DNA from: a bacterium
GTDB lineage: Bacteria; Margulisbacteria; Marinamargulisbacteria; SXXA01; JAHFDB01
Assembly: GCA_023249195.1 (NCBI GenBank)
Contig: JAHFDB010000002.1
Location: 13,911-77,910 of the forward strand
Length of the DNA stretch: 64,000 bases
Reading direction: 5' to 3'
A program made the translations under genes and the position numbers. Below, in pieces: positions 5,391 to 51,651 of the stretch. The notes beneath the pieces are model-generated. The model made no database searches and was not told the DNA's origin. It saw only the letters and a program-made list of their open reading frames with translations. The first letter of the stretch is position 1, and every line of letters starts with the position of its first letter.

Positions 5391-6646
5391 AAAAACCCTT
5401 CGTATTTTTTAGATACTAAAAGAGAATCTATCTGACGCAACAAATCAAGAGTTACACCAACAATAATTAACAAGGCCGTACCGCCTAGCCCCATAAAACT
5501 AGTTATTTTAGTCAAGTTAGCTGTTACTATAGGAACAAGAGCAAGAAAAGAAAGAAAAATAGCCCCAACCAAAGTTAATCTTGTAATAATTGCCTCTAGA
5601 TATTCCACTGTTGATTTGCCAGGACGAACCCCCATAATAAAACCACCGTATTTTTTTATATTATCAGACAATTCTTGGGGATTAAAGGTAATCGCTGTAT
5701 AAAAATAAGTGAAAAAGAATATTAACAAACAGAAAACAAAATTATACAAAAAACCATCATACCTATAGTAAATACTAAAAAAATTCTTAACACCCTCAAT
5801 CTGAGTATAATGAGATATCATTAGAGGAAACTGCAGAACAGCAGAAGCAAAAATAATAGGCATAACACCACCTTGAATAAGACGCAATGGAATATAGGTG
5901 CTTTTACCAGTATATAACTTCCTACCTACTATTCGCTTTGCATACTGCACTGAAATCTTTCTCTGAGCTTCCTGAACAACAATTATTGAAACAATAATCA
6001 TTAAAAAAACAACAACCAACACAAATACACCCAAAAGACTCACCCCACCCTGTATAAGGGTATAGGTATTGTGAATATAATTAGGCATTTGAGCAATAAT
6101 TCCAACAAAGATTAGTACAGAAGCACCATTCCCAATTCCAAATTCAGTAATAAGTTCACCAAACCACATAACCAGTGAAGCACCTGCAACCAAACCTAAA
6201 ACAGAGTAGAAAAGAAAGAAAAGAAAAGATGTGTCTGGGTATAAAAAATCTCTAAATCCAATAGTCATTACGGTTGCCTGCACAAAAGCAATAGTAATAG
6301 CTAAATACCTCGTGTATTGAGAAATCTTTTTTCTTCCAAATTCACCTTCCTCAGAAAGTTCTTTAAGCTGAGGCCATATAATAGTAAGAAGCTGAATAAT
6401 AATAGAAGCATTAATGTAAGGAAGCACCCCCAAGGCAAAAACAGAGAACCGGCTGAGGCCCCCACCTGAAAACAAGTTAAAAAACCCGAGAACCCCCCCC
6501 TGAGAAAAAAGCCTCTCGAGAGAAGCAAGATCAATTCCTGATATAGGAATATGGGTACCTAAACGATATAAAAACACAATAAAAAGAGTAAAGAAGACCT
6601 TTTTTCTTAAGTCCTGAAGCCTGAAAATAGAAAAAAAATAATTCAT
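5387..6646 (-). CDS. secY: preprotein translocase subunit SecY
   Basis: 419 aa polytopic membrane protein in the canonical rplO-secY-adk position. Confidence 0.93.
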   Translation of the reverse strand: MNYFFSIFRLQDLRKKVFFTLFIVFLYRLGTHIPISGIDLASLERLFSQGGVLGFFNLFSGGGLSRFSVFALGVLPYINASIIIQLLTIIWPQLKELSEEGEFGRKKISQYTRYLAITIAFVQATVMTIGFRDFLYPDTSFLFFLFYSVLGLVAGASLVMWFGELITEFGIGNGASVLIFVGIIAQMPNYIHNTYTLIQGGVSLLGVFVLVVVFLMIIVSIIVVQEAQRKISVQYAKRIVGRKLYTGKSTYIPLRLIQGGVMPIIFASAVLQFPLMISHYTQIEGVKNFFSIYYRYDGFLYNFVFCLLIFFFTYFYTAITFNPQELSDNIKKYGGFIMGVRPGKSTVEYLEAIITRLTLVGAIFLSFLALVPIVTANLTKITSFMGLGGTALLIIVGVTLDLLRQIDSLLVSKKYEGFL

Positions 6647-7104
6647 CTCTCAGACAACTGATTCACTGATCCCCCACAACTTTTCAGTTTTTCAAGAGCG
6701 GTCTTTGAAAAATAATGAGCATGAACTATTAGTTTTTTTGTAATTTCACCTGTTCCTAAAATTTTAATCTTGACCCCCCTCTTGGTCTTAACAAAACCTT
6801 TCTCTCCCAAAGAAACCGCATCAACGACATCACCCTCTTGAAAAAAAGTCTCCAATTTATTTAAATTAACAACACATATAGATTCCTGAAATAATTTATT
6901 GCCAATCCCACGTTTCTTGGGCAACCTTCTATATAATGGTATCTGCCCTCCCTCAAACCCTGTCCTTCGTGAATAACCAGTTCTGCTTTTCTGACCCTTA
7001 TGCCCCCGACCTGATTCTCCACCCTTCCCAGAAGAATTACCTCTTCCTTTTCGAGTAGATTTCTTAACAGATCCTTTTGCAGGTTTAAATTCAAATTCTT
7101 TCAT
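6643..7104 (-). CDS. rplO: 50S ribosomal protein L15
   Basis: 153 aa with a Gly/Arg-rich N-terminus. Directly follows rpsE, leaving no L30 gene between them. Confidence 0.92.
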   Translation of the reverse strand: MKEFEFKPAKGSVKKSTRKGRGNSSGKGGESGRGHKGQKSRTGYSRRTGFEGGQIPLYRRLPKKRGIGNKLFQESICVVNLNKLETFFQEGDVVDAVSLGEKGFVKTKRGVKIKILGTGEITKKLIVHAHYFSKTALEKLKSCGGSVNQLSER

Positions 7105-7122
7105 GATATTTTCCTTACTATT

Positions 7123-7674
7123 TTATGAAACAACCACAGGTTCTTCTTGAACAATTTCTTCTTTTCTAACATATACAGGGATATTTCTCCCCCTATATCT
7201 AATCTCATCTTGTAAATTTCTGCACCCGGACAAAGCCACCAAAGCAGCCTTAGCTGAATTAATAGAATTATTAGAACCCAATGTCTTCGCAACAATATCC
7301 TTAATACCTAAAGACTCTAGAATAATTCTCACAGCCCCGCCAGCAATAACACCTGTCCCAGGTCTTGCAGGTTTTAAAATAACTTTAGATGCACCAAACT
7401 TACCCTCGACCATATGAGGCAAAGTACCAGAAACAATATTAACCTTAAATAAAGATTTTTTTGATTTCTCAATAGCCTTTCTAATCGCGTTAGGTACTTC
7501 CTTAGATTTCCCAACACCTATCCCCACAGAGCCCTTTAGGTCCCCTGCAATAACAAAGGCCCTGAAAGCCATCCTCTTCCCACCTGTAACAACCTTATTA
7601 ATTCTATCAATTTGAATAACTTTTTCAACAATACCATCATCTTGTGCATTGTTTTTACCTCTATTCTGCTCCAT
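7123..7674 (-). CDS. rpsE: 30S ribosomal protein S5
   Basis: S5 dsRBD plus C-terminal domain (motif KVVTGGKRMAFRAFV), with a roughly 15 aa N-terminal extension. Confidence 0.92.
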   Translation of the reverse strand: MEQNRGKNNAQDDGIVEKVIQIDRINKVVTGGKRMAFRAFVIAGDLKGSVGIGVGKSKEVPNAIRKAIEKSKKSLFKVNIVSGTLPHMVEGKFGASKVILKPARPGTGVIAGGAVRIILESLGIKDIVAKTLGSNNSINSAKAALVALSGCRNLQDEIRYRGRNIPVYVRKEEIVQEEPVVVS

Positions 7675-7689
7675 ACAAAATACTCCTTA

Positions 7690-8013
7690 TTAAAAACTTA
7701 ACCCGTGTTCTCTTGCAGAATCCGCGAGAGCCTTCAACCGACCTGAATAAATATATCTCCCACGATCAAAAACAACCTTTTCAATATTCAAAGCTTTAGC
7801 TCGCCTCGCAAGCTCTTCACCTACACTCTTTGCTGCATTTAACTTAGTCATTCCCGTAATCTTCAGAGAAGAAGCTGAAGCTAAAGTAACACCTTTTTGA
7901 TCATCAATAATCTGAACAAAGATATGCATATTACTTCTAAAAACAGACAATCGAAGCCTCTCATGAGTACTCTTAATTGCTACTTTACTTCTTTTAACAA
8001 TTGACTTTGCCAT
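7690..8013 (-). CDS. rplR: 50S ribosomal protein L18
   Basis: 107 aa L18/L5e family. Confidence 0.92.
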
Positions 8014-8025
8014 ATAATTTACTCC

Positions 8026-8562
8026 CTACTTCTTAACGCTCTTACCTTGTTTCTTTTTAATAAACTCCCCCATGTACTTAATTCCTTTGCCCTTATAGGC
8101 GTCTGGAGCCTTGAGAGATCTAATATTTGAGGCAACCTGACCTACAACTTCTTTATCTATTCCCAAAACCTTAATTTTATTCTGACCTTCAACAACAAAA
8201 GAAATACCTAGAGGTGGCTCAACAACAACCGGATGAGAAAACCCCAAAGAGAAAACCAGTGATTTACCTTGAAGCAAAACTTTATAACCAACCCCAATAA
8301 TTTCTAAATCTTCATGAAAACCAAAAGATACACCCTGGATCATATTTACAATCAAAGCCCTATACAACCCATGTTTAGCATCCAAACTCTTATCCTGGTT
8401 CAAATTTACAACCTCAATTATTTCTTCAGAAATAGCCAAAGAAATACCCTCGCACAAAGACAAGCTCAATGACCCTTTTACACCCTGAACATTGACGATC
8501 GAATTGTCAAACGAGACTTGAACATTTTTATCTTTTTTGATTAATTTTTTTCCAATTCTAGA
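8026..8562 (-). CDS. rplF: 50S ribosomal protein L6
   Basis: Conserved N-terminus (V)SRIGKKLI begins at an internal GTG. The tracked ORF extends spuriously to 8619 into rpsH. Confidence 0.85.
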   Translation of the reverse strand, partial: SRIGKKLIKKDKNVQVSFDNSIVNVQGVKGSLSLSLCEGISLAISEEIIEVVNLNQDKSLDAKHGLYRALIVNMIQGVSFGFHEDLEIIGVGYKVLLQGKSLVFSLGFSHPVVVEPPLGISFVVEGQNKIKVLGIDKEVVGQVASNIRSLKAPDAYKGKGIKYMGEFIKKKQGKSVKK

Positions 8563-22350: not shown

Positions 22351-23069
22351 TTAAGAGTAAAGTGATCACCAAGATAAAATTTTCTTGCAACAGAATTATT
22401 GGCAATTTCAGTAGAATTTCCAGACAAAAGTAATTGTCCATTATGAATCAAGTAAGCTCTATCTGTAATAGCCAACGTTTCTCGTACATTATGGTCAGTA
22501 ATAATGACGCCTAGATTACGATTTTTAAGGGCCACTATAATCGTTTGGATTTCAGCAACTGCAATAGGATCAATACCTGCAAATGGCTCATCCAACAAAA
22601 TAAACGAAGGGTTTGTGGCCAAAGCACGGATGATTTCAACACGTCTTTTTTCCCCCCCAGACAACTCAACTCCCTTAGCTTTTTTTAAATGCAAAAGCCC
22701 CATCTCACCCAATAGTTGATCCAACCTAGAACTAAACTCCGATTTAGGAATAGTACCCAGAATTTCCCACAAAATATAAATATTTTCTTCCACTGTAAGC
22801 TTCTTAAAAATCGACGACTCTTGAGGAAGATACCCTAAACCCATCCGTGCCCGCTGAAACATAGGCACCTTAGTAATATCTTCGGAATCAAGAAAAACTT
22901 GCCCACTATCTGGCTTAACAAGTCCAATAATCATATAAAAAGTGGTTGTCTTACCCGCACCATTAGGGCCCAAAAGCCCCACAATTTCACCTCTATTCAT
23001 TGTAAGGCTCACACCATCTACAACAAGACGTCCATGATAGGATTTTTTCAGATCTTTAATTTCAATCAT
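22347..23069 (-). CDS. lptB: LPS export ABC transporter ATP-binding protein LptB
   Basis: 240 aa with Walker A GPNGAGKTT and an LSGGEKRRV signature. Confidence 0.85.
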
Positions 23070-24154
23070 GTACGAGTCACCCTTACAGGGTTCAATACGA
23101 AAGTAGAAGGAATTTCTTGAGTGGATTTCTGAAAATTAATCATCTTCACACCATAAACATAGTCTTCCTCGACAAACTGCCTCATGTTACCTAAAGAATC
23201 AAGCACCTCTTTAATACGCCGAGAGCAGGTTTCAATACCAGTCAATACTTGTTTTTCAGGAGATCCCTCAGAAAAGTGTTTATGCAAAGCCTGAGATCCT
23301 ATCAAAATACTTGTCAAAGGATTTCTAATATCATGATTCAAAGCAACTTGTACCTGATCAATCAACTTTTCTTTCTCTTCTTGAATAATAGGATCTGTCA
23401 GCTGTATTTTTGAATGGGACAAAGGCATAGAAGGACCCATGCGCAACAAACGTTTAAACCTCAACTGTATATCATGAGACACCAAAGGCTTCAAAATATA
23501 GTCATCCACCCTCTCTAAAAATACGCCTTTAGAACCAGAAAGATCATCTAAAGATATCGCTAACACCCGTTTAATATGGGTATATCGTTCAGACAAAACA
23601 GCTAAACTCTCATTCAAAAAGCCTTCAGATAATGCTGCATCGAATACCACTACAGAAGGAAAAGCGGATTCAATCAACGCAATCCCCTCTTCTTTTTTAG
23701 AAGCCCTCAAAACCAAAAACCCTTGAGAAGCAAGACTCTTTACAAGAGCTTCTTGTAATTCATAAGAAGCGGTTAGTACCACAATTTTTGTCATGGGAAC
23801 CTTGAGTAACTTCTTAACGCGAAACAACAAGTCGAATTTATAAAAAGGTCTAAGTATATAATCTTGACCACTTAGTAACAAAAGGCTCGCCTCCTGAGAC
23901 AATTCCGAAGAAGAAGCAATATAGAGAATAGGGATTGAACACGAAACAATCGCCTGACGCATATCAGAAAACAAAGAATCCTCAAGGCAAAAACCTACAT
24001 CTAACAAAACAAGATCAATAGAGTGTTCTTTTAAGGCCGTCCGGACAGCCTCGCCAGTATAAGCTTCAAAAATCGAAAAACCTTCTTGAAAAAGAGCTGC
24101 CTTTATTTGATCGGAATAACAAGGAGAAGAATCTACAACAAGAATGGCTGTCAT
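23066..24154 (-). CDS. tandem receiver (REC-REC) protein with a C-terminal HisKA/DHp phosphoacceptor domain and no HATPase domain
   Basis: Two CheY-like receiver segments (VVDSS...LLDVGF and VVLTAS...VVFDA...ILKPL), then an H-box NHDIRNPLTSI. The ORF ends without an ATP-binding domain and overlaps lptB by 4 nt. Confidence 0.6.
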   Translation of the reverse strand: MTAILVVDSSPCYSDQIKAALFQEGFSIFEAYTGEAVRTALKEHSIDLVLLDVGFCLEDSLFSDMRQAIVSCSIPILYIASSSELSQEASLLLLSGQDYILRPFYKFDLLFRVKKLLKVPMTKIVVLTASYELQEALVKSLASQGFLVLRASKKEEGIALIESAFPSVVVFDAALSEGFLNESLAVLSERYTHIKRVLAISLDDLSGSKGVFLERVDDYILKPLVSHDIQLRFKRLLRMGPSMPLSHSKIQLTDPIIQEEKEKLIDQVQVALNHDIRNPLTSILIGSQALHKHFSEGSPEKQVLTGIETCSRRIKEVLDSLGNMRQFVEEDYVYGVKMINFQKSTQEIPSTFVLNPVRVTRT

Positions 24155-29288: not shown

Positions 29289-29384
29289 TACATAAAATCC
29301 TTTTACACGTTCGATAAATTTAGAATAAAGAACTGGAGAATACCATATTAAACAGTGTATCATTACAGAACTATGCGAACAACT

Positions 29385-30980
29385 ATGAGTGTTATTATTG
29401 AATTTCCAGGATCACTTTTTAGTTCTTTTCAGGAAAAGAACCATGGTGCAAACAAAGTCTCTCAAACCTTATTTAAGTGTCTTGCAAATAAATTGAGCGG
29501 ACCTATTTTTGTTGTAACGAATGCACCGTACAAGGATTTTCTTTCTTTTAAAACCCAGTTCAAAGAAGCGAACTTAATCCACACCAATTATACAACACTT
29601 CACAAAACATTAGAAAATTACCCCAAACCCGATCTCGCCTTTACTTCCGATCTGGCGATGGAAAAACTGCTTTTTTTTAGAAATTATTTTGGATACACAT
29701 TTCCTGTCATCGGGCTTGTTCATTATCTGGGCTCTCAATCGTCGATAGCAACATTAAAACAAACGCTATCTCTTTTTTCCCCCATAGATATCCTCATATG
29801 CCCCTCTGCCCATGTTCAAAAAACAGTTCTAAATTTATCAAACAAACTATCGCCAAAAAAAATTCTAAAAACACAATGTCCCGTCATTCCCTTTGGGATT
29901 GATACAAGCACTTTTATACCAGAACTAGACAAAAAAACCCTCCTAAAAAAACAGCTAAATCTTACTGAAAAAGACATACTTATTCTCCATATCTCAAGAA
30001 TTAATGCCTTTACAAAAACAGACCTATTGCCACTTATTCATAATTTTGAAACAACAACAATGGCTACCCCCTCCGTGCATCTATTTATTGTAGGAGAACT
30101 CCACTCGGAATTCTATTTTGAGCATATTAAACTGTATATTGAAGAAAGAGGCCTCTCAAAAAAAATACACTTTATAACTCGTCCCGACAGCCTCAATATG
30201 CACATATATTTTCAAGCTGCAGATATTTTCATTTCTCTTGCAGACAATCCCTGCGAAACCTTTGGGCTTACCGCAATTGAAGCCATGTCGTGTTGTCTTC
30301 CGGTAATTCTATCTGATTTTTGTGCCTATTCCAGTTTTATAGAGAATCAAAAAGAAGGATTCTTAATTCCAACTTTTCGCGGAGAATGCCATCTTGAAAT
30401 ACCCTTTTTTCTAGCCAACGCCTCCGATTTTGGAGACACCCTTATTCAATCTACAGCAATAGACAACTCAACTTTTCGAAAAGCACTTTCAAAACTTATA
30501 AAAAACCCTAATCTACGCTCAAAAATGGGCATTCTGGGCAGAAAAGTTGTTCTAAAAAAATACACTTTAGAAAAAATGACAATCAGCTATCTAGCTCTAT
30601 TTAACAAAACTGTACTCAACAGCAAAAAAAACAGTCCTAACCATTTTCTCAGACCCAAGCTTACTCAACTTGATGGGTCCCTTAACCATGTTGCATCCTT
30701 ATCACTCACAACAAATACATGCTTTAAAATAACCCCCTTTGGAAAATCTATCATCGAAAAAAAAGAATCCTTTTTTACCTTTGAAAAACATCTCATAGAA
30801 CGACCTTTTCTAGCTCTTCTTATGGATATTTTCAAAAAAGGAATTTACTCTCTAGAAAATCTTACTTCATTTTTTCCAAAAGAAGACTCTCTCCAACTAA
30901 CGCTACTTTATTTACTCAAACACGACTTATTGGAAATAGTAAAAAGTGAAAGCTTTTCAAAAACCCCGCACCCCAGGTGA
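29385..30980 (+). CDS. glycosyltransferase family 1 (GT4-like) with a roughly 170 aa C-terminal extension
   Basis: GT1 sugar-donor motif [18 protein letters not shown]. The start is uncertain (GTG at 29355, or ATG at 29373 or 29385). Confidence 0.7.
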
Positions 30981-31138: not shown

Positions 31139-32047
31139 TTGAACAACAGCAAAAATATTGACTTCTTACTAAGGGGTATTGCGATGTTAGATCTATACAA
31201 GTCTATACAAAATTCTATTGGAGGCCTAAACTCGGCACTGCGTATTGCCATTTCGAATGCAGATAACTTCAACACGCCTGGATTCAAATACACAACAGCT
31301 TCCTTTACATCTATTTACAATCAATCTATTACCTCTGGAACAGAAAGTACCAACCCTGTAACTATCGGAGGGAGCATGACCCTAGGCTCTACCAACACCG
31401 ATTTTAGTCAGGGAAATATCAGCATAGGAACGGCCCTCGACTCTGCCATTGTTGGAGAAGGATTCTTAATTTTATCCAAATCCGGCACAGAGTTTACCGA
31501 ATCATCCCCCAAAGTATTTACACGTCTCGGAAGATTTAAAGTAGATTTCGCAAACCAGTTTTTAACAGACACCTTTGGAAGAAAGGTCTTTGGATATAAA
31601 GTAGATGCAAATGGAAATCCTGTCAGTAGAACGTTGGTTCCTCTTCAAACCGATGGAAACACAGATGTAGGCTTCACAGCCGGAGGCATTCTTGTTACAA
31701 ATTTTCAAAAAAATAAAGACGACATCGCCAGCGGGGTAAATCCGCCGACAGCCACCGTCCCTCTTTACAGGCTTGCGCTCACCACATTCACAAACAAACA
31801 GGGATTAATTCCCGTTGAAGGAACAGCCTACAGTACTACCCAAGCCTCTGGACAACCCCTAGAACCTGGGAGTGCAGAGGAAGGCCCTTATGGAAACATT
31901 TTAGGGTCTAGCTTAGAATCATCAAACATAGACGTAGCCAGAATTGCTCTCGATATGGCCCTTTTAAATCGAGGCTATTCTGCTGTTCAGGGGTTAGTAG
32001 ACGATCTAAACAAAATTCTTTCCGGTTTAATTAGCAAGCTTCAATAA
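31139..32047 (+). CDS. flagellar basal-body rod/hook family protein (FlgE/FlgF/FlgG-like)
   Basis: N-terminal rod motif (MLDLYKSIQNSIGGL...ISNADNFNTPGFKY) and a C-terminal Flg_bbr_C-like motif (LESSNIDVARIALDMALLNRGYSA). Start may be the internal Met at about 31184. Confidence 0.65.
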   Translation: MNNSKNIDFLLRGIAMLDLYKSIQNSIGGLNSALRIAISNADNFNTPGFKYTTASFTSIYNQSITSGTESTNPVTIGGSMTLGSTNTDFSQGNISIGTALDSAIVGEGFLILSKSGTEFTESSPKVFTRLGRFKVDFANQFLTDTFGRKVFGYKVDANGNPVSRTLVPLQTDGNTDVGFTAGGILVTNFQKNKDDIASGVNPPTATVPLYRLALTTFTNKQGLIPVEGTAYSTTQASGQPLEPGSAEEGPYGNILGSSLESSNIDVARIALDMALLNRGYSAVQGLVDDLNKILSGLISKLQ

Positions 32048-32567: not shown

Positions 32568-32647
32568 AAAAAGCCCTCACTTGTTATTTAATTCTATGTG
32601 ATACTATCATAGTGGTATTCTAATGTGAAAGAAAAAGGAGTATTACT

Positions 32648-33607
32648 TTGGGACTAAAAGCTGTGATTCTTGCTGCCGGCAAGGGAACTCGGATGAAGTC
32701 AGAGATTTTAAAGGTTGTTCACCAAGTAGCAGGAAAACCGATTGTCAACTATGTGCTCGATACAGTGCTCAATATTGGGGTCGAGGATGTCTATTTAGTG
32801 GTAGGACACCAAGCCAATCTAGTACAACAAAATATCTGCCATGCCAATGCTCACTTTGTGATTCAAGAAGACCAAATGGGAACAGGCCATGCCGTCATGC
32901 AAGTACAGCCCCTCATTCCTATAGACAATAACGATACCATAATGGTTCTCGCTGGCGACTGCCCTTTAATCGAAGAAGAAACACTACAGAATCTATTGGC
33001 AATCCACCAAGAATCAAACGCACTCGGCACTATTTTAACAGCCATCATGGAAAACCCTGGAGGCTACGGAAGAATCTTAAGAGGCCAGATGGGAACCGTC
33101 ATTGGAATCAAAGAAGCGAAAGATTGCACAAGCGAGGAAAAAGAAATCCAAGAAATCAATACAGGAGTATATATTTTTGACTCGCAAGCTCTATTTGAAA
33201 ATCTTCAATATGTCGATACCAATAATACCCAAAAAGAATTTTATCTGACAGACGTGATTCATCTAATCAAAGAATCTGGAGGCGCTATTGCAGCGTATTG
33301 TGCAGAAGACTCCAATGAAGTAATTGGAATTAATACCAGAGAAGACCTAGCAAATATTAGCAAAATTATCTACCAAAAAAACAATATTCATTTTATGCAA
33401 GAAGGTATCACCATCATAGACCCCAACTCAACCTTTATTGATTCCACAGTAAAAATAGGAGGAGACACTATCATTTCGCCTTTCACCATTATTAAAGGCC
33501 ATACCGTTATAGGCACCCATTGCAAAATAGGACCACACACTTTTATCGAAAATGGTACTATTGTCAATGAGACAAACCTACCTCCATTTACCTATATCCA
33601 ACACTAA
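32648..33607 (+). CDS. GlmU-like sugar-1-phosphate nucleotidyltransferase with the uridyltransferase domain and only the first turns of the LbH domain (no acetyltransferase catalytic region)
   Basis: Motifs VILAAGKGTRM, QMGTGHA, EINTG and YLTD. Ends after about 60 aa of hexapeptide repeats. TTG start with an AAGGAG Shine-Dalgarno. Its stop overlaps the next gene's ATG (TAATG). Confidence 0.8.
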   Translation: MGLKAVILAAGKGTRMKSEILKVVHQVAGKPIVNYVLDTVLNIGVEDVYLVVGHQANLVQQNICHANAHFVIQEDQMGTGHAVMQVQPLIPIDNNDTIMVLAGDCPLIEEETLQNLLAIHQESNALGTILTAIMENPGGYGRILRGQMGTVIGIKEAKDCTSEEKEIQEINTGVYIFDSQALFENLQYVDTNNTQKEFYLTDVIHLIKESGGAIAAYCAEDSNEVIGINTREDLANISKIIYQKNNIHFMQEGITIIDPNSTFIDSTVKIGGDTIISPFTIIKGHTVIGTHCKIGPHTFIENGTIVNETNLPPFTYIQH

Positions 33608-34809
33608 TGCAGGAGGCTTTCTTAGGAAGAAACAAACTTGTTCAAGACCTGAAACAACATAAGATTTTATATGAACTTTCAAAAGCACTTCACTCCACTT
33701 TACATGAGTCAAAGCTATCTCAGCTTATTGTGGAAAGTATCTCTCTTATTTTTAATGCGAACTCTCAGTTGTGGCTTTTAGATCCAGGAAAAGAGACATT
33801 CACCTTAAAAGGAAGCAAACCTCCCACAAAAAATGAGAAAACATTGTCTTCAAAATGGTTTGAAGTCCTTATGCAAGGGCGCCCAATTCATTACGACCCC
33901 GTTAAAAACTACCTTCTATTTGCTTTAAACAACAAAAACCAACCCCTAGGGATTCTAGAAATTTTTTTAAATACCTCTCAAAAAGTAAGCCAAGATTCCT
34001 TAAATTTTTTACTCGAAGTCATGGACCCCATTATCCTAGCACTGGCCAATGCTAAGCATTATTCTCGCCTCGAAAAATGGGCGCTTCTAGATGGCCTGAC
34101 CGGACTTTTTAACCGTATCTACTTCCAAAAAACACTGGGCATTGAGATCGCGCGCGCAAAGAGACAGGAATACCCTCTTTCACTACTCATGATCGACCTT
34201 GATTTTTTCAAACATGTCAACGATACCTACGGACATCCTATCGGAGATGAGGTATTAAAAAGAATCAGCTGGCATTGTAGCCATTCCTTAAGAAAATCAG
34301 ATATCTTATCTCGTTATGGTGGAGAAGAGTTTATTGGACTATTGGTAGATTGCAATGGAATAAATGCATCTAGAATCGCAGAGAAAATTAGGTCAAAAAT
34401 AGAAAATTGGACATTATTTATTATCGAATCCACATCTCAACACCATCCCTATATTCTCATAGAAAAAATATCCTCCAAATATGAGTGGCTTACGCCCATG
34501 CCCTCAAATAAATCAGAAGCTATGTTAAACTCCCTTAAAAAATTGAGCCTTTCTGATACACATGTATTAAAAACAAAATCACTCATCTATTATAAAATCA
34601 AGGTCACTGTAAGCATTGGAATCGCATCCTATCCGGAAGACTTTTCCCACAGTTCAAAAGGGCTTGATCTTGTAAACGAAGGTGCAGAAGAAAAAGATCT
34701 TTTAGTATATATGGCCGATAAAGCCCTCTATAAAGCAAAAAAAGCGGGCAGAAACAAAGCATTATTATATCAAATTATCCAAAAAGGAGTCTCTAATGAG
34801 CACGCTTGA
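33607..34809 (+). CDS. GGDEF-domain diguanylate cyclase with an N-terminal GAF-like sensor region
   Basis: Active-site RYGGEEF preceded by an RKSD I-site. There is an insertion of roughly 60 aa between the core strands. Confidence 0.8.
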   Translation: MQEAFLGRNKLVQDLKQHKILYELSKALHSTLHESKLSQLIVESISLIFNANSQLWLLDPGKETFTLKGSKPPTKNEKTLSSKWFEVLMQGRPIHYDPVKNYLLFALNNKNQPLGILEIFLNTSQKVSQDSLNFLLEVMDPIILALANAKHYSRLEKWALLDGLTGLFNRIYFQKTLGIEIARAKRQEYPLSLLMIDLDFFKHVNDTYGHPIGDEVLKRISWHCSHSLRKSDILSRYGGEEFIGLLVDCNGINASRIAEKIRSKIENWTLFIIESTSQHHPYILIEKISSKYEWLTPMPSNKSEAMLNSLKKLSLSDTHVLKTKSLIYYKIKVTVSIGIASYPEDFSHSSKGLDLVNEGAEEKDLLVYMADKALYKAKKAGRNKALLYQIIQKGVSNEHA

Positions 34810-36475
34810 ACTGCAAAAAAAAGTCCCTCGCTATCGGTCCATCAGAACGACTATCTCAAACTTAAGATGGCAACTTGGATTGAGCACCTTTTTTACAGAT
34901 AAGGTCCCTTTCTCTTTCAGTACAGGCACATGTTTTGCATCAAAAATAAGCACCCTAGCCCACACATGTCATGGCCATTGGGTTGAACTTGGGGCAGGAA
35001 CAGGAATTTTATCTCGACATATTTTAGATAAACTCAAACAAGACTTTTCTGAAGACTATGCAAACATTCGTATTTCAGTTTCCGACTATTCTGAGTCTGC
35101 AGTCGCTTCGTTAAAAAACGCAGGGCTTTTTTCTGAACATCCTAACACTGATTTTCCCATTATAAATGCGCATGCCCCTCATTTTAGCACTAAAGAATGG
35201 CCTAGGGTTGTTATTTTGTCCTATTTACTTGATTCAATGGACTGCCGCCATATTGAAATAAACAACAACACTGTCTCTGAAATTCAAGTAAAAACAAGAA
35301 TCAAAACAACAGCACCTATTATTGATGTCAGTGTTTTTCCACCAAAAATTCGTAATCCAGAAGAAATTAAAAAACTTTTCAATGGAAAGGATATTCATCT
35401 TCAAAAAAAGATAGCCCCTTTTCTCCTTCCTTATCTCAAAGAAAGCTATGTCAAAGTTCCTTTAAACAAAACAGATATGTCAAAAAAAGAAAAAGAAGAT
35501 CTCCTTTCTTTTGCAAAAACTCTGCCCAAAACAACCCTTCGTTTTAATTATTCTATGCACTTTTCAAATATGCTCAAAGAGTTACTTGCCAGGGACCAAG
35601 AATCACTCATTATTATCAACGATTTTGGGTATCCCTTGGCCGATGTCGCCCCAAAAGTAAGTGCACTAAGTACTACCTATGGCACTGTTTCATGTCACTC
35701 AGTATACTTTCCCTACCTACGCCATATTGCAACTGACTGCAAAGCGACTACATTCACGACCCTCAACCCCCCTGGAAACACACAGATGATGGTCATCTAC
35801 AAAGGGAAAAGAGAGGCCTACATCCAAGAGCAATGTCTCTCCATTTTTAAAAACAAAGAATACGATACAATGCACACGCTTGCTAAAACCGTTTTTAAAC
35901 TAAAAAAACCAACAAAAAACACTCACTCCCATCTAGAGCTGCAATGGAAAAATATAGCCCCGCTTTATAAGGAAGATTATTTTGTTACCATGTCTTTTGC
36001 AAACGTTGCCTATAAAAACAAGCTCTATTCTAAAGCAATCGAGTGCCTAGAGAAAATTTTACCCTCTTATGCCTCAATTTCTATTCCTAGGTTACATCTT
36101 TTAGGCTATTGTTATCTAGAAAATGGAGATTTTAAGAATGCAGAAAAAGCATTCAAAAAAGCACTCAATTTATCCCTAGACTACCCCGTATCCTATCTCA
36201 ACATTGCCCATCTCTATCTCAAAAAAAGAGAACTTGAAAGCTATCAAAAAGCCATTAAGACCTATATTGAAAAAGCAGATAGGCCTTCGTTCGGAGAACA
36301 CATGATCACCTTAGCCCTTTTATATGTTCAAACAGGCGATAGAGAAACATCAAGCGCTCTTACTGAATTCATTTGCACTGCCTACACGCAAGACAAATCT
36401 CTCTTCTCTGAATCCCTTTATCGAAAAGCGCTAGGAATTCAAAATCTTATTGCCCAGATTCAACCGACGACCTAA
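34796..36475 (+). CDS. class I SAM-dependent methyltransferase (MidA/DUF185-like N-terminal) fused to C-terminal TPR repeats
   Basis: Motif I HWVELGAGTGILSRHIL, with TPR-like helices in the last roughly 150 aa. Overlaps the GGDEF gene by 14 nt. Confidence 0.6.
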   Translation: MSTLELQKKVPRYRSIRTTISNLRWQLGLSTFFTDKVPFSFSTGTCFASKISTLAHTCHGHWVELGAGTGILSRHILDKLKQDFSEDYANIRISVSDYSESAVASLKNAGLFSEHPNTDFPIINAHAPHFSTKEWPRVVILSYLLDSMDCRHIEINNNTVSEIQVKTRIKTTAPIIDVSVFPPKIRNPEEIKKLFNGKDIHLQKKIAPFLLPYLKESYVKVPLNKTDMSKKEKEDLLSFAKTLPKTTLRFNYSMHFSNMLKELLARDQESLIIINDFGYPLADVAPKVSALSTTYGTVSCHSVYFPYLRHIATDCKATTFTTLNPPGNTQMMVIYKGKREAYIQEQCLSIFKNKEYDTMHTLAKTVFKLKKPTKNTHSHLELQWKNIAPLYKEDYFVTMSFANVAYKNKLYSKAIECLEKILPSYASISIPRLHLLGYCYLENGDFKNAEKAFKKALNLSLDYPVSYLNIAHLYLKKRELESYQKAIKTYIEKADRPSFGEHMITLALLYVQTGDRETSSALTEFICTAYTQDKSLFSESLYRKALGIQNLIAQIQPTT

Positions 36476-38524: not shown

Positions 38525-39973
38525 TTGCCTACAACTATACCTTGTCTGTTGCCTTTATGGAAGCCTAGACTTCGATTAGGTAGCTTTGTATACTTCCCAA
38601 TTATGTTCAAAAAGCTTATGGGACTCCCTGCCATGCCTTACCTCATTGTCTCATTTTTGATTCTGAGTTGGCCTTTTATTAATTTTCCGCTAACTGACGG
38701 AGACATTGAGCATTGGGTCAAAATAGCCACCTCTGTTCGGGTTCAAAATCTATTTTTAACAGGCCCCCATGACCAGGCGCATGGCCCTCTTCTTTCTTGG
38801 ACAGGAGGCCTACTCGCTCATCTTCATCCCACCTCTTTTTATCTGTATGCCTGCTTCAGTATCGTTATGGGCCTTTTGGGAGTTTTCTGGACCTATTATT
38901 TTTCACAAAAATTCTGGAAAAACACCTCTCTTTCCAAACTTTGCACCTTTGTATTTTCAACTAACATTGCATTTATATATCTCTCAAGAACACCCATGTA
39001 CGACTGGCCTGCCGCTATTTTTTATTTCGGATTTTGCGGATTTTATACGCTCTTTATCAAAGAGCATAAGTACTCTTTTTTAATTCTAAGCTTGTTTTGT
39101 CTGAGTGTGGGAAGCCTGAGTCGCTTTTCAATTTCATTGGGTTTGGGCATAGGCTATATCGCGGGAGCTCAACTCATCTTAAATAGAAAAAAAGGACTAA
39201 AAAATATCATAAAAGACATTTTTCTGATCACACTTACCGTGTGCTGTATAAATGCAGCGTGGATTTGGGGCCAATACACCACCCATGGAATCGCTTTTTT
39301 AGAAGAGTTTTTCTACGACAATATAGGAAGATATCTCAGAGAACCAGGAAACAGTACCATTCACCACGATTACTACGGGTTTGTGGTCTATGCGCTGATT
39401 GCCTTATTGCCTTATAGCCCCTGGTTTTTAGCCTCTATATTGCAAAAAAAATTTTTACAAACTTTAAAATCAGACACATGGGTTCAACTTCTCGGAATAG
39501 CGTGGCTGCCTTGTCTCGTCATTTTTTCTTTTTCAGGACATGTCAAATTAGGAAGATATATCGCCTATATTGTCCCCTCACTATCCTTGTTTATGAGCTA
39601 TTTACTTTTTCAAGACATTCAAAACACCGCCTACACTCAAAAAGTAAAAAGACTCATGCGCGTCATTCTAAGCTTATTAATAGCCCTTCTGGTATACGAA
39701 GGGTTTCATTTCAACACGGAATCTTTAAGCAGCGTACCACTCGTAATCAGCGTTGTTTGGGTCATATTTGGAGGACTCTTGTGGGCTTATTACACCTTAG
39801 TAATAAACCCCAAGAAATTTTTAGCCTCTCCAGAAAAATACCTTTATGGGTTCATAATTCTATATTTCGTTTTTTTCACTGTTCTGTCCTATGAAAGCCT
39901 TCATGCACCGTTTCTAGTAGAAACACGCTCAAAACTGTTATCTATCATTCAAAACAACTCGTCCCTTGAATGA
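38525..39973 (+). CDS. GT-C family glycosyltransferase (ArnT/PMT-like, GT83/GT39-type)
   Basis: Polytopic membrane protein with an acidic first-loop motif TDGDIEHW and a PLLSW segment typical of ArnT-like transferases. Confidence 0.6.
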   Translation: MPTTIPCLLPLWKPRLRLGSFVYFPIMFKKLMGLPAMPYLIVSFLILSWPFINFPLTDGDIEHWVKIATSVRVQNLFLTGPHDQAHGPLLSWTGGLLAHLHPTSFYLYACFSIVMGLLGVFWTYYFSQKFWKNTSLSKLCTFVFSTNIAFIYLSRTPMYDWPAAIFYFGFCGFYTLFIKEHKYSFLILSLFCLSVGSLSRFSISLGLGIGYIAGAQLILNRKKGLKNIIKDIFLITLTVCCINAAWIWGQYTTHGIAFLEEFFYDNIGRYLREPGNSTIHHDYYGFVVYALIALLPYSPWFLASILQKKFLQTLKSDTWVQLLGIAWLPCLVIFSFSGHVKLGRYIAYIVPSLSLFMSYLLFQDIQNTAYTQKVKRLMRVILSLLIALLVYEGFHFNTESLSSVPLVISVVWVIFGGLLWAYYTLVINPKKFLASPEKYLYGFIILYFVFFTVLSYESLHAPFLVETRSKLLSIIQNNSSLE

Positions 39974-46745: not shown

Positions 46746-47363
46746 ATGACAGAAAAACTCACCCCCATGCAGGCACGTGTCTATACCTTCATTTGTGAGT
46801 TTGCTCAAGAAAACGGGTTTCCCCCTTCCTATTCTGAGATGGCTAAAAAATTCAATTTTTCCTCGGACGGCACTATCAGAACCTATCTGGAACACCTAGA
46901 AAAGAAAGGCTATATCCAACGCCTAGGCCAAGCCAGAGGCCTCAAACTATTAGTGAATCCCCAAACAAAACAAGGACAGGCGATCCCTATCGTCGGTAAA
47001 ATAGCCGCAGGCCCACCTAATGCCGCTATAGAGACACATGAAGGAACACTTGCAGATATTCCTCAGCTTCATCCAGAGAAAGGCCGTATGGCCCTTAAAA
47101 TCAAGGGGGACAGCATGCAAGACGCGGGCATTCTCGACGGAGACCTTGCCATCATTCAAAAAGATGTCCCTGTTCCCAACGGTCACATAGGCGCCGTTTT
47201 TATAGACGGAACAGCCACTCTAAAGCGCCTCTTCTACGAAAAAGACAAGGTCAAACTTCAACCCGAGAACACCGCCTACGAACCCCTCTACCTCGACAAA
47301 ACCAACCCCAATACCCACATTATCGGACGCCTAATCGCAGTAGTACGAAATCAGATTTTCTAA
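46746..47363 (+). CDS. lexA: LexA repressor (S24 self-cleaving)
   Basis: N-terminal wHTH, an AAGPP cleavage site, GDSM Ser and LKR Lys. Confidence 0.9.
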   Translation: MTEKLTPMQARVYTFICEFAQENGFPPSYSEMAKKFNFSSDGTIRTYLEHLEKKGYIQRLGQARGLKLLVNPQTKQGQAIPIVGKIAAGPPNAAIETHEGTLADIPQLHPEKGRMALKIKGDSMQDAGILDGDLAIIQKDVPVPNGHIGAVFIDGTATLKRLFYEKDKVKLQPENTAYEPLYLDKTNPNTHIIGRLIAVVRNQIF

Positions 47364-48406
47364 GAAACCAAGGCCTGCATCACCCTAAAAATAAGTTTTC
47401 GATTTTTCTTAAACAACACCAAGCCACTCCCAATCAAAAGAACACTCAATCCGACCATTAAAACCTGCTGCATCCCCGTAGATATGTATAAAAGCACAGA
47501 CAAAATACCCAATACAGCCGTCACAAAATAACTAAACAAAGCAATCTGCTTTTGAGTCAAACCAGAATGCAGCAATTCATGATGAAAGTGTCCCTTATCC
47601 GGCTTAAAAATAGCCTGTTTATTTTTAAATCGCCTCAGAATAGCGTATAGCATGTCTAAAATAGGAATTCCCAAAACCAAGATGGGCACAAAAACACGCC
47701 AAGACAAATCCCCTGCCATCACCCCCCTTACGGACACCAAACCCAGCATATAGCCCAAGAACATAGACCCTGTATCCCCCATAAAAATACTCGCCGGAGG
47801 AAAATTAAAACACAAAAACCCCAAAGTTGAACCCATAACAGCCAGCATAAGCACCATCGAAGTCATGTGCCCAGACTGGAAAGAAACCAAGGCCAAAACA
47901 GCGGCTGCAATAAAAGAAATGCCCGCAGCCAAACCATCTAACCCATCAATCAAATTAATCGTATTAATAATACTAATCACAAAAAATATGGTCACAGGAA
48001 CGGCCATAATTCCCAAAGAAAACGAGCCCACAAAAGGAACAGAAAGCGTCGATAACACCACCCCTTGGCTCACCGGAATCCAGGCCATAAACACTTGCCC
48101 AAACAACTTCACCAACGGCCGAATGCACAAAACATCATCAATAATACCCAAAACCAAAATAAAAAAAGCGCCCAACAACATGCCACGAAAATCCAAACTA
48201 AAGGCATATTGACCAATGGTTTGCACACTTAACAAAGCACCCAAACAAATGGCAACCCCGCCCAGGTGTGGAATAGGCGATGTATGAACTTTTCGGTCAG
48301 ACGGAGGATCGATAAACCCAAATTTAAGCGATACTTTTTTAACAACAGGCGTAATAATAAGACTAGAAATAAAAGCAAGAAAAAAAACAGAAAAAATAGA
48401 GGTCAT
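47360..48406 (-). CDS. UDP-GlcNAc:undecaprenyl-phosphate GlcNAc-1-phosphate transferase (WecA/TagO, GT4 polyprenyl-phosphate transferase family)
   Basis: Motif FIDPPSDRKVHTSPIPHLGG, with more than nine TM helices. ATG at 48406 is preferred over GTG at 48421. Confidence 0.75.
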   Translation of the reverse strand: MTSIFSVFFLAFISSLIITPVVKKVSLKFGFIDPPSDRKVHTSPIPHLGGVAICLGALLSVQTIGQYAFSLDFRGMLLGAFFILVLGIIDDVLCIRPLVKLFGQVFMAWIPVSQGVVLSTLSVPFVGSFSLGIMAVPVTIFFVISIINTINLIDGLDGLAAGISFIAAAVLALVSFQSGHMTSMVLMLAVMGSTLGFLCFNFPPASIFMGDTGSMFLGYMLGLVSVRGVMAGDLSWRVFVPILVLGIPILDMLYAILRRFKNKQAIFKPDKGHFHHELLHSGLTQKQIALFSYFVTAVLGILSVLLYISTGMQQVLMVGLSVLLIGSGLVLFKKNRKLIFRVMQALVS

Positions 48407-48427
48407 TATTAAATTATACACAAAAAA

Positions 48428-50262: not shown

Positions 50263-51651
50263 ATGGACGAATCTTTAAAACCTACGCTTTTAACATTGTG
50301 GCAGCAAGAACTCCACTCAAACCCTAAGTTAGCTGAAAATTCAAAAGAACTTTTGAACACCTTACTTCATACCATTGAAACAAAAACCATTCCCTCTATT
50401 TCTGCCCAAAGCCTTGAGCCCATACTCGTCATGTGGCATCAATTACTGAAACAACAGCATCATGCGGGACTCAGCGTCAAAGATACAGCGATGCTGCTTC
50501 TTTCTCTCAAAACAACCCTATCACGCAGTATGGAAGACGGCACGCTAAACAATGAACCCAAACTTACTACCCTAGTAGATATGCTCAGTGTCTTTTCTTT
50601 TGAACTGTATAGCGCGCAACAGGAGCAGGTTATTGAGAAACAAAACAATCAAATTGAATATCTTCAAACCAATCGCACATTACCTCCTTACAACACTCTT
50701 TTAGGGGAAAGCCCTCAGATGCAAGCCGTGTACAAGGCCATGGACTTAGTGTTAGACAATGACATTACAGTCTTACTTCAAGGCGAAAGCGGCACAGGAA
50801 AAGATGTCATTGCGACAGCCATTCATGAACACTCAAAACGCAATAAAAAACCATTTATTACCCTCAATTGTGGAGCCATTCCCAAAGAGCTTATCGAATC
50901 TGAATTATTTGGGCATGAAAAAGGATCCTTTACGGGGGCTCAAGAACGTAGGCTAGGGAAATTTGAACTCGCCGATGGGGGGACTCTGTTCCTAGACGAA
51001 ATTGCCGAGCTTCCTCTGGATCTTCAAGTCAAACTATTACGTGTCTTGCAAAACAAAGAAATTGAACGGGTAGGTGGAAGCCAAAAAATATCAATCAATG
51101 CGCGTATTATTGCCGCCACTAACCAAGACCTGAACACCGCCGTAAAAAAGGGGGCCTTTCGGTTAGATCTGTTCTATAGGCTTAACGTATACCCCATTCA
51201 TATTCCTTCCTTAAGGGAACGCAAAGAAGACATTGTGATGTTAGCCCTTCATTTCCTGCATCTATATAGCCACCAATTTAAAACCCCAGCCCAAACCCTC
51301 ACCGCTGACGCCCAACAGTTTTTACTCGCTCAAAAATGGGAAGGCAATGTCAGAGAATTAGAGAATATGATGCAACGTGCTGCCTTGCTATCAAAAACCA
51401 AGGATGTCAGCGCGGATATCCTCTCATGGCAGCCTGGCAAACTTACCCAAGCTACCCCCGCACAACCGTTAGCACTTCCTCTAAGAACCATTGTCCCTTT
51501 GGCCACACTCGAAGCCCAGGCTCTAACCACAGCCCTTAAAATTACAGGGGGAAACATCAAACAAGCCGCCATAGAGCTAGGAATTTCACGCACCACTTTC
51601 TATAACAAGGCCAAGCTTTATAGCCTTCCACTCGATGAGGCAAAAAACTAA
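50263..51651 (+). CDS. sigma-54-dependent transcriptional activator (AAA+ EBP) with a non-receiver N-terminal domain
   Basis: Walker A GESGTGKD, a GAFTGA-type segment (GSFTGA), an ESELFGHEKG motif and a C-terminal Fis-type HTH. The N-terminal 160 aa are not a REC domain. Confidence 0.85.
   Translation: MDESLKPTLLTLWQQELHSNPKLAENSKELLNTLLHTIETKTIPSISAQSLEPILVMWHQLLKQQHHAGLSVKDTAMLLLSLKTTLSRSMEDGTLNNEPKLTTLVDMLSVFSFELYSAQQEQVIEKQNNQIEYLQTNRTLPPYNTLLGESPQMQAVYKAMDLVLDNDITVLLQGESGTGKDVIATAIHEHSKRNKKPFITLNCGAIPKELIESELFGHEKGSFTGAQERRLGKFELADGGTLFLDEIAELPLDLQVKLLRVLQNKEIERVGGSQKISINARIIAATNQDLNTAVKKGAFRLDLFYRLNVYPIHIPSLRERKEDIVMLALHFLHLYSHQFKTPAQTLTADAQQFLLAQKWEGNVRELENMMQRAALLSKTKDVSADILSWQPGKLTQATPAQPLALPLRTIVPLATLEAQALTTALKITGGNIKQAAIELGISRTTFYNKAKLYSLPLDEAKN

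Follow-up and report, generated by a model that had tools for sequence, protein, structure and literature searches.

A three-gene operon in a 64,000-nucleotide stretch of contig JAHFDB010000002.1 from a bacterium of the Marinamargulisbacteria (the whole stretch is called the window below) joins a short form of glmU to a gene for a predicted diguanylate cyclase (dgc), the enzyme that synthesises c-di-GMP (cyclic diguanosine monophosphate), and to a gene for a MidA-like, S-adenosylmethionine (SAM)-dependent methyltransferase with C-terminal tetratricopeptide repeats (TPRs). We favour, with moderate confidence, the reading that this glmU(short)-dgc-methyltransferase/TPR operon is old in Margulisiibacteriota, is divergent from hpf, and consists of genes that are co-regulated without being obligate partners. 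The cyclase and the methyltransferase are thus probably co-regulated neighbours and not a new signalling machine. A conserved and apparently translationally coupled operon of this composition is worth recording in Margulisiibacteriota, an uncultured phylum, and the main value of the locus lies in pointing to an uncharacterised enzyme family and in correcting two readings of the first-pass annotation of this DNA, which had seen here a truncated gene and a novel module.

The three genes are close-packed open reading frames (ORFs) on the forward strand at 32648-36475, and they encode proteins of 319, 400 and 559 amino acids (Table 1). The TAA stop codon of glmU shares bases with the ATG of the cyclase gene (TAATG), the cyclase and methyltransferase genes overlap by 14 nt, and an AAGGAG ribosome-binding site for the latter lies inside the end of the former. 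Because of these overlaps, we conclude that the three genes are almost certainly co-transcribed and translationally coupled. Our reading of the ORFs agrees with the first-pass annotation in the coordinates, in the lengths of the second and third proteins and in the size of their overlap. No ORF of at least 80 amino acids is found on the opposite strand inside the cyclase and methyltransferase genes. Upstream of glmU lies the divergent hpf, encoding a ribosome hibernation factor, and downstream the convergent recJ overlaps the 3′ end of the methyltransferase gene with its own 3′ end by 29 nt.

We compared this arrangement with that of related loci, two of which (L001 and L002) are identical in sequence to the window. 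Locus L003 matches the window throughout, with a flagellar-like gene, hpf, glmU (319 amino acids), the GGDEF gene (398), the methyltransferase gene (552), recJ, a membrane-protein gene and ssb, the window ssb being assigned solely via this synteny. A short contig (L004) carries the C-terminus of the GGDEF protein and the methyltransferase. Locus L016 has hpf, glmU (320), a GGDEF gene (329; protein P0013, without the large insertion described below) and the methyltransferase gene (559), beyond which the genes are unrelated (HGLS, LplA, chorismate mutase and others). The overlap between the GGDEF and methyltransferase genes is 4 nt in L003 and L004 and 1 nt in L016, and the ribosome-binding-site arrangement ahead of the L016 methyltransferase gene matches that of the window: AAAAGGAGCTCTCTGATG. 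With the full trio seen in the window, L003 and L016, and its second half in L004, the operon appears to be old within the phylum.

Two further arrangements were found. In L007 and L008, from a Candidatus Margulisiibacteriota assembly, the order is hpf, glmU (327), GGDEF gene (437) and ftsZ, and the methyltransferase gene is absent there; in L020 it is hpf, glmU (319), methyltransferase gene (574) and chorismate mutase gene, with no GGDEF gene and no remnant of one. The GlmU proteins of the window, L016, L007 and L020 are all 60-64% identical to one another, and the four loci therefore represent four roughly equidistant lineages, two with glmU-GGDEF-methyltransferase, one with glmU-GGDEF-ftsZ and one with glmU-methyltransferase. 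The simplest history would be an ancestral glmU-GGDEF-methyltransferase operon with one loss of each downstream gene. Accordingly, the pairing of cyclase and methyltransferase appears to be facultative, each gene being kept next to glmU without the other in sister lineages. Furthermore, no GGDEF gene stands beside the methyltransferase gene in 11 further loci of the methyltransferase family (L005, L006, L010-L013, L015, L017-L019 and L021).

These comparisons bear on a link between second-messenger signalling and a methylation step, which the first-pass annotation had put forward. In favour of such a link, the overlapping trio is kept in two lineages, those of the window and L016, in which GlmU is 64% and the methyltransferase 34% identical and in which the downstream genes differ. 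Against it, sister lineages have either gene alone, and the 11 further loci have no GGDEF neighbour. The sequence evidence is thus mixed, and a direct functional coupling of cyclase and methyltransferase is unproven.

The middle gene has all the sequence and fold features of a predicted active, product-inhibited diguanylate cyclase. The Pfam profile PF00990 matches at 135.1 bits (cutoff 23.8) in a single stretch that covers only profile positions 1-118 of 161, and TIGR00254 matches at 151.7 bits (cutoff 37.4) in two stretches, which indicates that the GGDEF domain is interrupted. Conservation was judged on an alignment of 119 homologs, and the window protein keeps every invariant column of it. 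R229, D232, R236, G238, G239, E240 and E241 are invariant, while D197, D199, K202, N205, D214, K378 and R382 fall on columns that are invariant or at least 90% conserved; the conserved block DxD..FK..ND..GH..GD, S336/G338 and K378..G381-R382 are likewise retained. The RxxD of the inhibitory site lies five residues before the active site (R229-K-S-D232, ILSRY, GGEEF). The aspartate at 214 fits a canonical guanine-specific enzyme and not the Hypr type. An AlphaFold2 model built from the 119-sequence alignment has a predicted local distance difference test (pLDDT) score of 92.3 and a predicted template modelling (pTM) score of 0.84, and a Foldseek search of the PDB with this model returned diguanylate cyclases only. 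The best full-length hits were the GAF-GGDEF protein Dcsbis (4zmu) and a phytochrome-GGDEF protein (5llw), and target-normalised TM-scores to the isolated GGDEF domains 3ign, 4zvf, 7a7e and 6ttr were 0.83-0.91. Profile hidden Markov models (HMMs), alignment and fold search therefore bear out the earlier call of a GGDEF protein with intact GGEEF and RxxD motifs.

The N-terminus, previously described as sensor-like, is GAF-like in the model and in the fold search. A Pfam scan of the window protein gave no GAF hit at E<=0.01, and the evidence for a GAF-like fold in the first 130 residues comes from the order of strands and helices in the model, from the GAF- and PHY-GGDEF proteins at the top of the fold search, and from homologs that align over 92-97% of the protein, most of which carry Pfam GAF, GAF_2 or GAF_3. 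Taken alone, the cyclase is ordinary, probably one more representative of the GAF-GGDEF class, in which its hairpin insertion is unusual.

This insertion is evident from the spacing between GGEEF and the SIG strand, which is 93 residues compared to a median of 39 in the 119 homologs and thus corresponds to about 54 extra residues. The first-pass annotation had placed some 60 residues before the final beta-strand; the insertion is real, but it is shorter and sits ahead of the penultimate core strand. In the AlphaFold2 model it is predicted to form a small strand/helix/strand subdomain between beta4 and beta5 (strands 282-286 and 292-294, helix 300-315, strands 320-322 and 326-332; pLDDT 86-95), and it leaves the fold of the domain undisturbed. 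A second insertion of about 14 residues follows the SIG strand (32 residues from SIG to ADKALY, versus 18) and is common to the entire P0009-P0014 subfamily. The large insertion, on the other hand, aligns without gaps in the closest relatives (P0009 and P0010), is longer in P0011, reaches about half the length in P0014, and is missing from P0012 and P0013. Among clade members it is 26-28% identical, compared to 66% for the neighbouring segment of the GGDEF core, and it appears to be the fastest-evolving segment of the protein. P0013, the GGDEF protein of L016, matches the Pfam profile unbroken (1-161 of 161), yet a methyltransferase gene comes next. We infer that the insertion is a lineage-specific decoration of a peripheral hairpin, probably needed neither for catalysis nor for the pairing. 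As a general rule, a role of the insertion as docking site for the methyltransferase was rejected, since L016 pairs an insertion-free GGDEF protein with the methyltransferase and a longer insertion is found in P0011, a protein of another architecture. In P0011 (L009, 8001-9962), whose architecture is GAF-GGDEF-HD (HD_5), 103 residues separate GGEEF from SIG; its gene lies at a contig end, so that its downstream neighbour falls outside the contig.

For the third protein, the Pfam family Methyltransf_28 (PF02636) matches above its cutoff, although marginally (26.8 versus 23.3 bits), over profile positions 19-195 of 249; relatives in the same family of proteins reach 54-65 bits. The TPR HMMs exceed their cutoffs as well (TPR_8, 36.8 bits against 25.7; TPR_2, 31.8 bits against 27), and the C-terminus has a helical-repeat fold. 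An AlphaFold2 model built on four sequences reached moderate quality (pLDDT 75.4, pTM 0.71), and in the fold search with it MidA/DUF185/COG1565 proteins were the best non-TPR structural matches, which supports a MidA-type fold. HMMs, structure prediction and fold search are thus in agreement with the original proposal of a MidA-like class I SAM methyltransferase fused to TPRs. Neither of the outcomes named beforehand as refuting the first-pass annotation, a GGDEF fold broken by the insertion or a methyltransferase motif without HMM support, was observed.

This methyltransferase-TPR protein represents a sizeable unnamed family of proteins of about 550 amino acids that has no characterised member and is related in fold to MidA/DUF185. 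Word-based searching hardly detects the family (4 hits). A word-indexed homolog search found only three relatives of the methyltransferase and a scan of genome contigs found one; an exhaustive HMM search, run over 1.84 billion cluster representatives, yielded 185 proteins at E<=1e-30, of which some 150 are 500-585 amino acids long and match the profile end to end. In 125 full-length members, E64, G66, G68 and G70 of motif I are kept at 94-99% and D97 at 79%, an N-terminal W25..G28...F32..P38-F39-S40 motif at 82-97%, Y143, D146, E162, N251 and D276-F-G278 at 80-96%, and, at about 80%, Y425 and A449, two signature positions of the TPRs. Of 20 family representatives looked up, none has a functional name. 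Some variants carry an extra acetyltransferase domain, and in L011 a GT1 glycosyltransferase replaces the TPRs. Distant members (25-33% identical) have different neighbours and never a GGDEF gene; among these neighbours are a radical-SAM/DUF3641 gene, a tandem paralog next to FliK-like and FlhB-like genes, nadA, genes for a beta-barrel-like protein and for a 4HBT thioesterase, and a gene for a CHASE-domain protein together with one for a large protein of unassigned function.

Several loci of this family show features of their own. The L011 fusion (5648-8422) is a 924-amino-acid protein with a Methyltransf_28-like domain and a GT1 glycosyltransferase, encoded in a cluster with an FkbM methyltransferase gene and two GT2 genes. 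Genes for a CHASE-domain protein and for a large protein (712-943 amino acids, no Pfam match) adjoin the methyltransferase gene in L011, L012 and L013. The metagenome-assembled genome Bpl_23 (JAAEMD01; L006, 56-2312, and L021, 358-2079) has at least three methyltransferase-TPR paralogs, two of them in tandem; the tandem copies adjoin a phosphatidylserine-decarboxylase-like gene and genes that resemble, by eye only, fliK and the C-terminal part of flhB.

The first gene of the operon encodes a GlmU made of the uridyltransferase domain and about 65 residues of left-handed beta-helix. In this it resembles bifunctional GlmU, to whose N-terminal uridyltransferase domain and beginning of the left-handed beta-helix it aligns (TIGR01173, positions 2-313 of 452); it differs in the absence of the C-terminal acetyltransferase part and in a score (338.3 bits) under the equivalog cutoff of 366.85. 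All of the best 120 homologs (48-75% identity) are 300-337 amino acids long, and the named members among them belong to Candidatus Margulisiibacteriota or Marinamargulisbacteria, which places the window in this phylum or a close relative of it. The window protein is 71% identical to that of L003 and 61-64% identical to those of L016, L020 and L007 (64% for L016). A GlmU of about 320 amino acids without the acetyltransferase half thus appears to be a conserved trait in Margulisiibacteriota. What had been taken for a truncated gene of a uridine diphosphate (UDP)-sugar enzyme is therefore the normal short GlmU of the phylum, and a pseudogene or truncation was rejected, the homologs being uniform in length and highly conserved. 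A short GlmU prompts one to ask where, in this phylum, the acetylation of glucosamine-1-phosphate (or -6-phosphate) takes place.

Table 1. Features of the glmU(short)-dgc-methyltransferase operon and its upstream region (window coordinates)
Feature	Coordinates	Strand	Basis
Palindromic motif TGATACTATCATAG, hpf/glmU divergent intergenic region	32599..32612	.	conserved in five intergenic regions
Short GlmU, 319 aa, first operon gene	32648..33607	+	TIGR01173, Pfam NTP_transferase and Hexapep
GAF-like / coiled-coil / GGDEF diguanylate cyclase (predicted), 400 aa	33607..34809	+	Pfam, TIGR00254, AlphaFold2, Foldseek
N-terminal sensor domain, residues 1-128, GAF-like alpha/beta fold (predicted)	33607..33990	+	secondary structure of AlphaFold2 model
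Long linker helix, residues 129-160 (32 residues; predicted)	33991-34086	+	AlphaFold2 model
Inhibitory site (I-site) R229-K-S-D232 (nt 34291-34302) and active-site GGEEF 238-242 (nt 34318-34332)	34291..34332	+	translation
Lineage-specific insertion, residues ~276-332, ~54 extra residues, beta4-beta5 hairpin	34432..34602	+	homolog spacing, AlphaFold2
AAGGAG ribosome-binding site	34784..34789	+	inside end of GGDEF gene; 6-nt spacing to methyltransferase ATG
MidA-like class I SAM methyltransferase (predicted) with C-terminal TPRs, 559 aa	34796..36475	+	Pfam, fold
SAM-binding motif I E64-L-G-A-G-T-G70	34985..35005	+	94-99% conserved at E64, G66, G68 and G70 across 125 full-length members
TPR or TPR-like helical repeats, residues ~395-554, nine helices	35978..36457	+	TPR HMMs, helical-repeat fold

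Three points weigh against the reading of an old operon of co-regulated but separable genes. First, about 16 loci of the methyltransferase family were inspected, several of them short contigs, and at the level of the locus only, so that a “lost” GGDEF or methyltransferase gene may lie elsewhere in the genome. Second, the overlapping junctions and the similar ribosome-binding-site context in two distant lineages could reflect a real stoichiometric coupling that goes beyond shared regulation. Third, it is on its fold and a marginal Pfam score that the third protein is most probably a SAM-dependent protein methyltransferase, and profiles of its N-terminal domain gave no significant match to PDB sequences (MidA 5ztz, E 0.055-0.5; 4f3n, E 0.22), which makes it a distant relative outside the characterised MidA group.

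Under the reading of co-regulated neighbours, the soluble cyclase would dimerise via its long linker helix, and its GAF-like domain would bind a small ligand and thereby set the rate of c-di-GMP synthesis from guanosine triphosphate (GTP), with c-di-GMP feeding back on the cyclase at the RxxD site. The TPRs would recruit the protein substrate of the methyltransferase, and both enzymes would share regulation with the synthesis of UDP-N-acetylglucosamine (UDP-GlcNAc).

A true two-component module is an alternative that we consider unlikely. In such a module the TPRs would dock either on the cyclase or on an effector of c-di-GMP, and this docking partner would be methylated by the MidA-like domain, so that c-di-GMP output would be tuned in an array-independent analogue of CheR-TPR/WspR. 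This alternative would fit the adjacency of the genes and the overlap of their stop and start codons at four loci, which belong to two lineages as far apart from each other as each is from the remaining lineages examined. It would also fit the kept AAGGAG-N6-ATG context and the survival of the pair where downstream synteny is broken, and a methyltransferase-TPR fusion clustered with GGDEF response regulators provides a precedent (PMC3447774). However, the methyltransferase is missing beside the orthologous cyclase of L007 and L008 and the cyclase beside the methyltransferase of L020, the further family loci have no GGDEF neighbour, none of the paralogs of Bpl_23 is shown beside a GGDEF gene, and the cyclase that is paired in L016 lacks the insertion, which would be the obvious candidate for docking. 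A more specific proposal, to which we give a still smaller chance, is that the substrate of the methyltransferase is the co-translated cyclase or a c-di-GMP-controlled envelope or flagellar component, so that methylation would form an adaptation layer on c-di-GMP signalling without chemoreceptor arrays. If this were true, the unnamed family, with its 185 or more clusters, would amount to a new class of protein methyltransferases in bacteria, and methylation of the cyclase or its targets would be a new way to tune the output of a second messenger. Failing that, the locus serves to correct an annotation, which is useful but unremarkable.

The conservation could also be purely positional, with a strong housekeeping promoter shared in a slowly rearranging region by genes that have no functional relation. 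The synteny of hpf and glmU is found everywhere, the window and L003 share recJ, ssb and the membrane-protein gene downstream, and either gene can be lost from the locus. Moreover, between the window and L003 the cyclase (53% identity) and the methyltransferase (43%) evolve much faster than RecJ (77%) and GlmU (71%). Against this explanation, the trio survives in L016 despite replaced downstream genes, and the reading frames have kept their overlap in every case, an argument for selection on co-expression. We regard a purely positional origin as improbable.

We likewise give a low probability to an envelope or glycan pathway, in which GlmU would supply UDP-GlcNAc to a c-di-GMP-controlled polysaccharide or glycoconjugate synthase and the methyltransferase would modify the glycan or its machinery. 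Here glmU is the constant anchor of the locus in four lineages, c-di-GMP commonly activates exopolysaccharide synthases, the distant L011 member is fused to GT1 within its FkbM-methyltransferase/GT2 cluster, Glyco_transf_9 and GT2 genes lie near L016 and L017, and the window itself encodes GT1 (29355-30980) and GT4 (47360-48421) glycosyltransferases. On the other side, those relatives of the methyltransferase fold that have been characterised all act on protein arginine, neither the operon nor the window ORFs scanned include a PilZ, synthase or exporter gene, GlmU is unspecific as a housekeeping enzyme for peptidoglycan and lipopolysaccharide precursors, and tRNA, flagellar-like and hpf genes separate the window glycosyltransferase genes from the operon. 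Finally, a horizontally acquired island was rejected, GC content and skew being normal and the neighbours housekeeping genes.

A putative regulatory site for the operon lies in the intergenic region between hpf and glmU. In an alignment of this region from the window, L003, L016, L020 and L007, the TGATACTATCATAG block is the only well conserved stretch; the window contains one exact copy of it, 36 nt upstream of where glmU starts and 32 nt away from the start codon of hpf. Read on either strand, the motif resembles an extended -10 element (forward, TGaTACTAT; reverse, TGaTAGTAT), and a consensus promoter scan places hexamers at it on both strands, the scan as a whole being no better than in shuffled sequence. 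Site counts in both the promoter and the terminator scans of the window were not above those of shuffled sequence. We propose TGATACTATCATAG as a candidate for a bidirectional promoter or operator that hpf and the glmU operon would share.

The operon is surrounded by housekeeping genes (metK, recA, rny, ymdB, lptF/G, thiC, recJ, typA, lexA, recO and dnaE), and its GC content and skew are those of the rest of the window, with no compositional anomaly. GC skew is strongly negative in all 2-kb bins of the window at 1-64000 (-0.03 to -0.35), independent of gene strand. An Rfam scan of the window returned tRNA-Lys only, with no c-di-GMP riboswitch or other known RNA. No PilZ domain or other obvious c-di-GMP receptor was found among the roughly 35 window ORFs scanned, a set that excluded ORFs of ribosomal-protein size at 1-19 kb.

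Four other genes of the window deserve mention. Upstream of hpf, 31139-32047 encodes a 302-amino-acid protein whose N- and C-terminal sequences are like those of flagellar rod or hook proteins, with no Pfam hit at E<=0.01 and 62% identity to its L003 counterpart. A polytopic membrane protein of 482 amino acids without a Pfam match is encoded at 38525-39973, where L003 has a 457-amino-acid gene at the equivalent position. The product of 50263-51651 is a sigma-54-dependent activator with AAA+ and Fis-type helix-turn-helix domains and an unassigned N-terminal domain of 145 residues; some sigma-54-dependent activators bind c-di-GMP. An ORF of 362 amino acids at 23066-24154 has a receiver domain followed by a HisKA phospho-acceptor domain, with no ATPase domain detected.

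Among known systems, those closest to the cyclase are GAF-GGDEF diguanylate cyclases such as Dcsbis/PA2771 of Pseudomonas aeruginosa (4zmu; one of the best full-length Foldseek hits, E 1.5e-16), with which it shares a helical linker, a GG(D/E)EF active site and an RxxD inhibitory site and probably also the type of N-terminal sensor, GAF-like here. It differs in sequence (about 20% identity), in a sensor too diverged for the Pfam GAF models, and in the insertions of about 54 residues in the hairpin and about 14 residues after SIG, none of which was noticed in the solved structures among the hits, as judged without a residue-by-residue check.

The methyltransferase compares with MidA and NDUFAF7, seven-beta-strand protein arginine methyltransferases whose substrate is NDUFS2 of complex I (PMC9006661). 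It is only 12-15% identical to the solved members (5ztz, 5zu0, 1zkd, 4f3n and 4g67), its family has an N-terminal W..G...FF....VPFS motif of its own, and it has a C-terminal TPR domain where MidA has none. Furthermore, nothing ties it to NDUFS2, and no nuo genes occur among the window ORFs scanned.

Of published systems, Wsp-type chemosensory clusters come closest to the gene pair. A full-text literature search found no paper that combines “Margulisbacteria” with “c-di-GMP”, and a broader search gave nothing on the topic among its top results. In Wsp (WspC/WspR), as here, a SAM methyltransferase-TPR fusion and a diguanylate cyclase are encoded in one cluster. However, the window methyltransferase is not CheR (neither Pfam nor NCBIfam gave a CheR or CheR_N match), and the input domain of the window cyclase is GAF-like, not REC. 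The Pfam matches of the flanking ORFs include no chemoreceptor, CheA, CheW or CheB; the flanking ORFs 31139-32047 and 38525-39973 had no match. A Wsp-like chemosensory cluster was rejected on these grounds, with no CheR, REC, chemoreceptor or CheA detected. The statement that the pairing is not a described module therefore stands in so far as the locus, with neither CheR nor REC and with no chemoreceptor or kinase domain in those flanking ORFs that have a Pfam match, is not of the Wsp kind; the clustering of methyltransferase-TPR and GGDEF proteins as such is known, CheR-TPR methyltransferases co-clustering with about 20 GGDEF-containing response regulators in Wsp-type clusters (PMC3447774).

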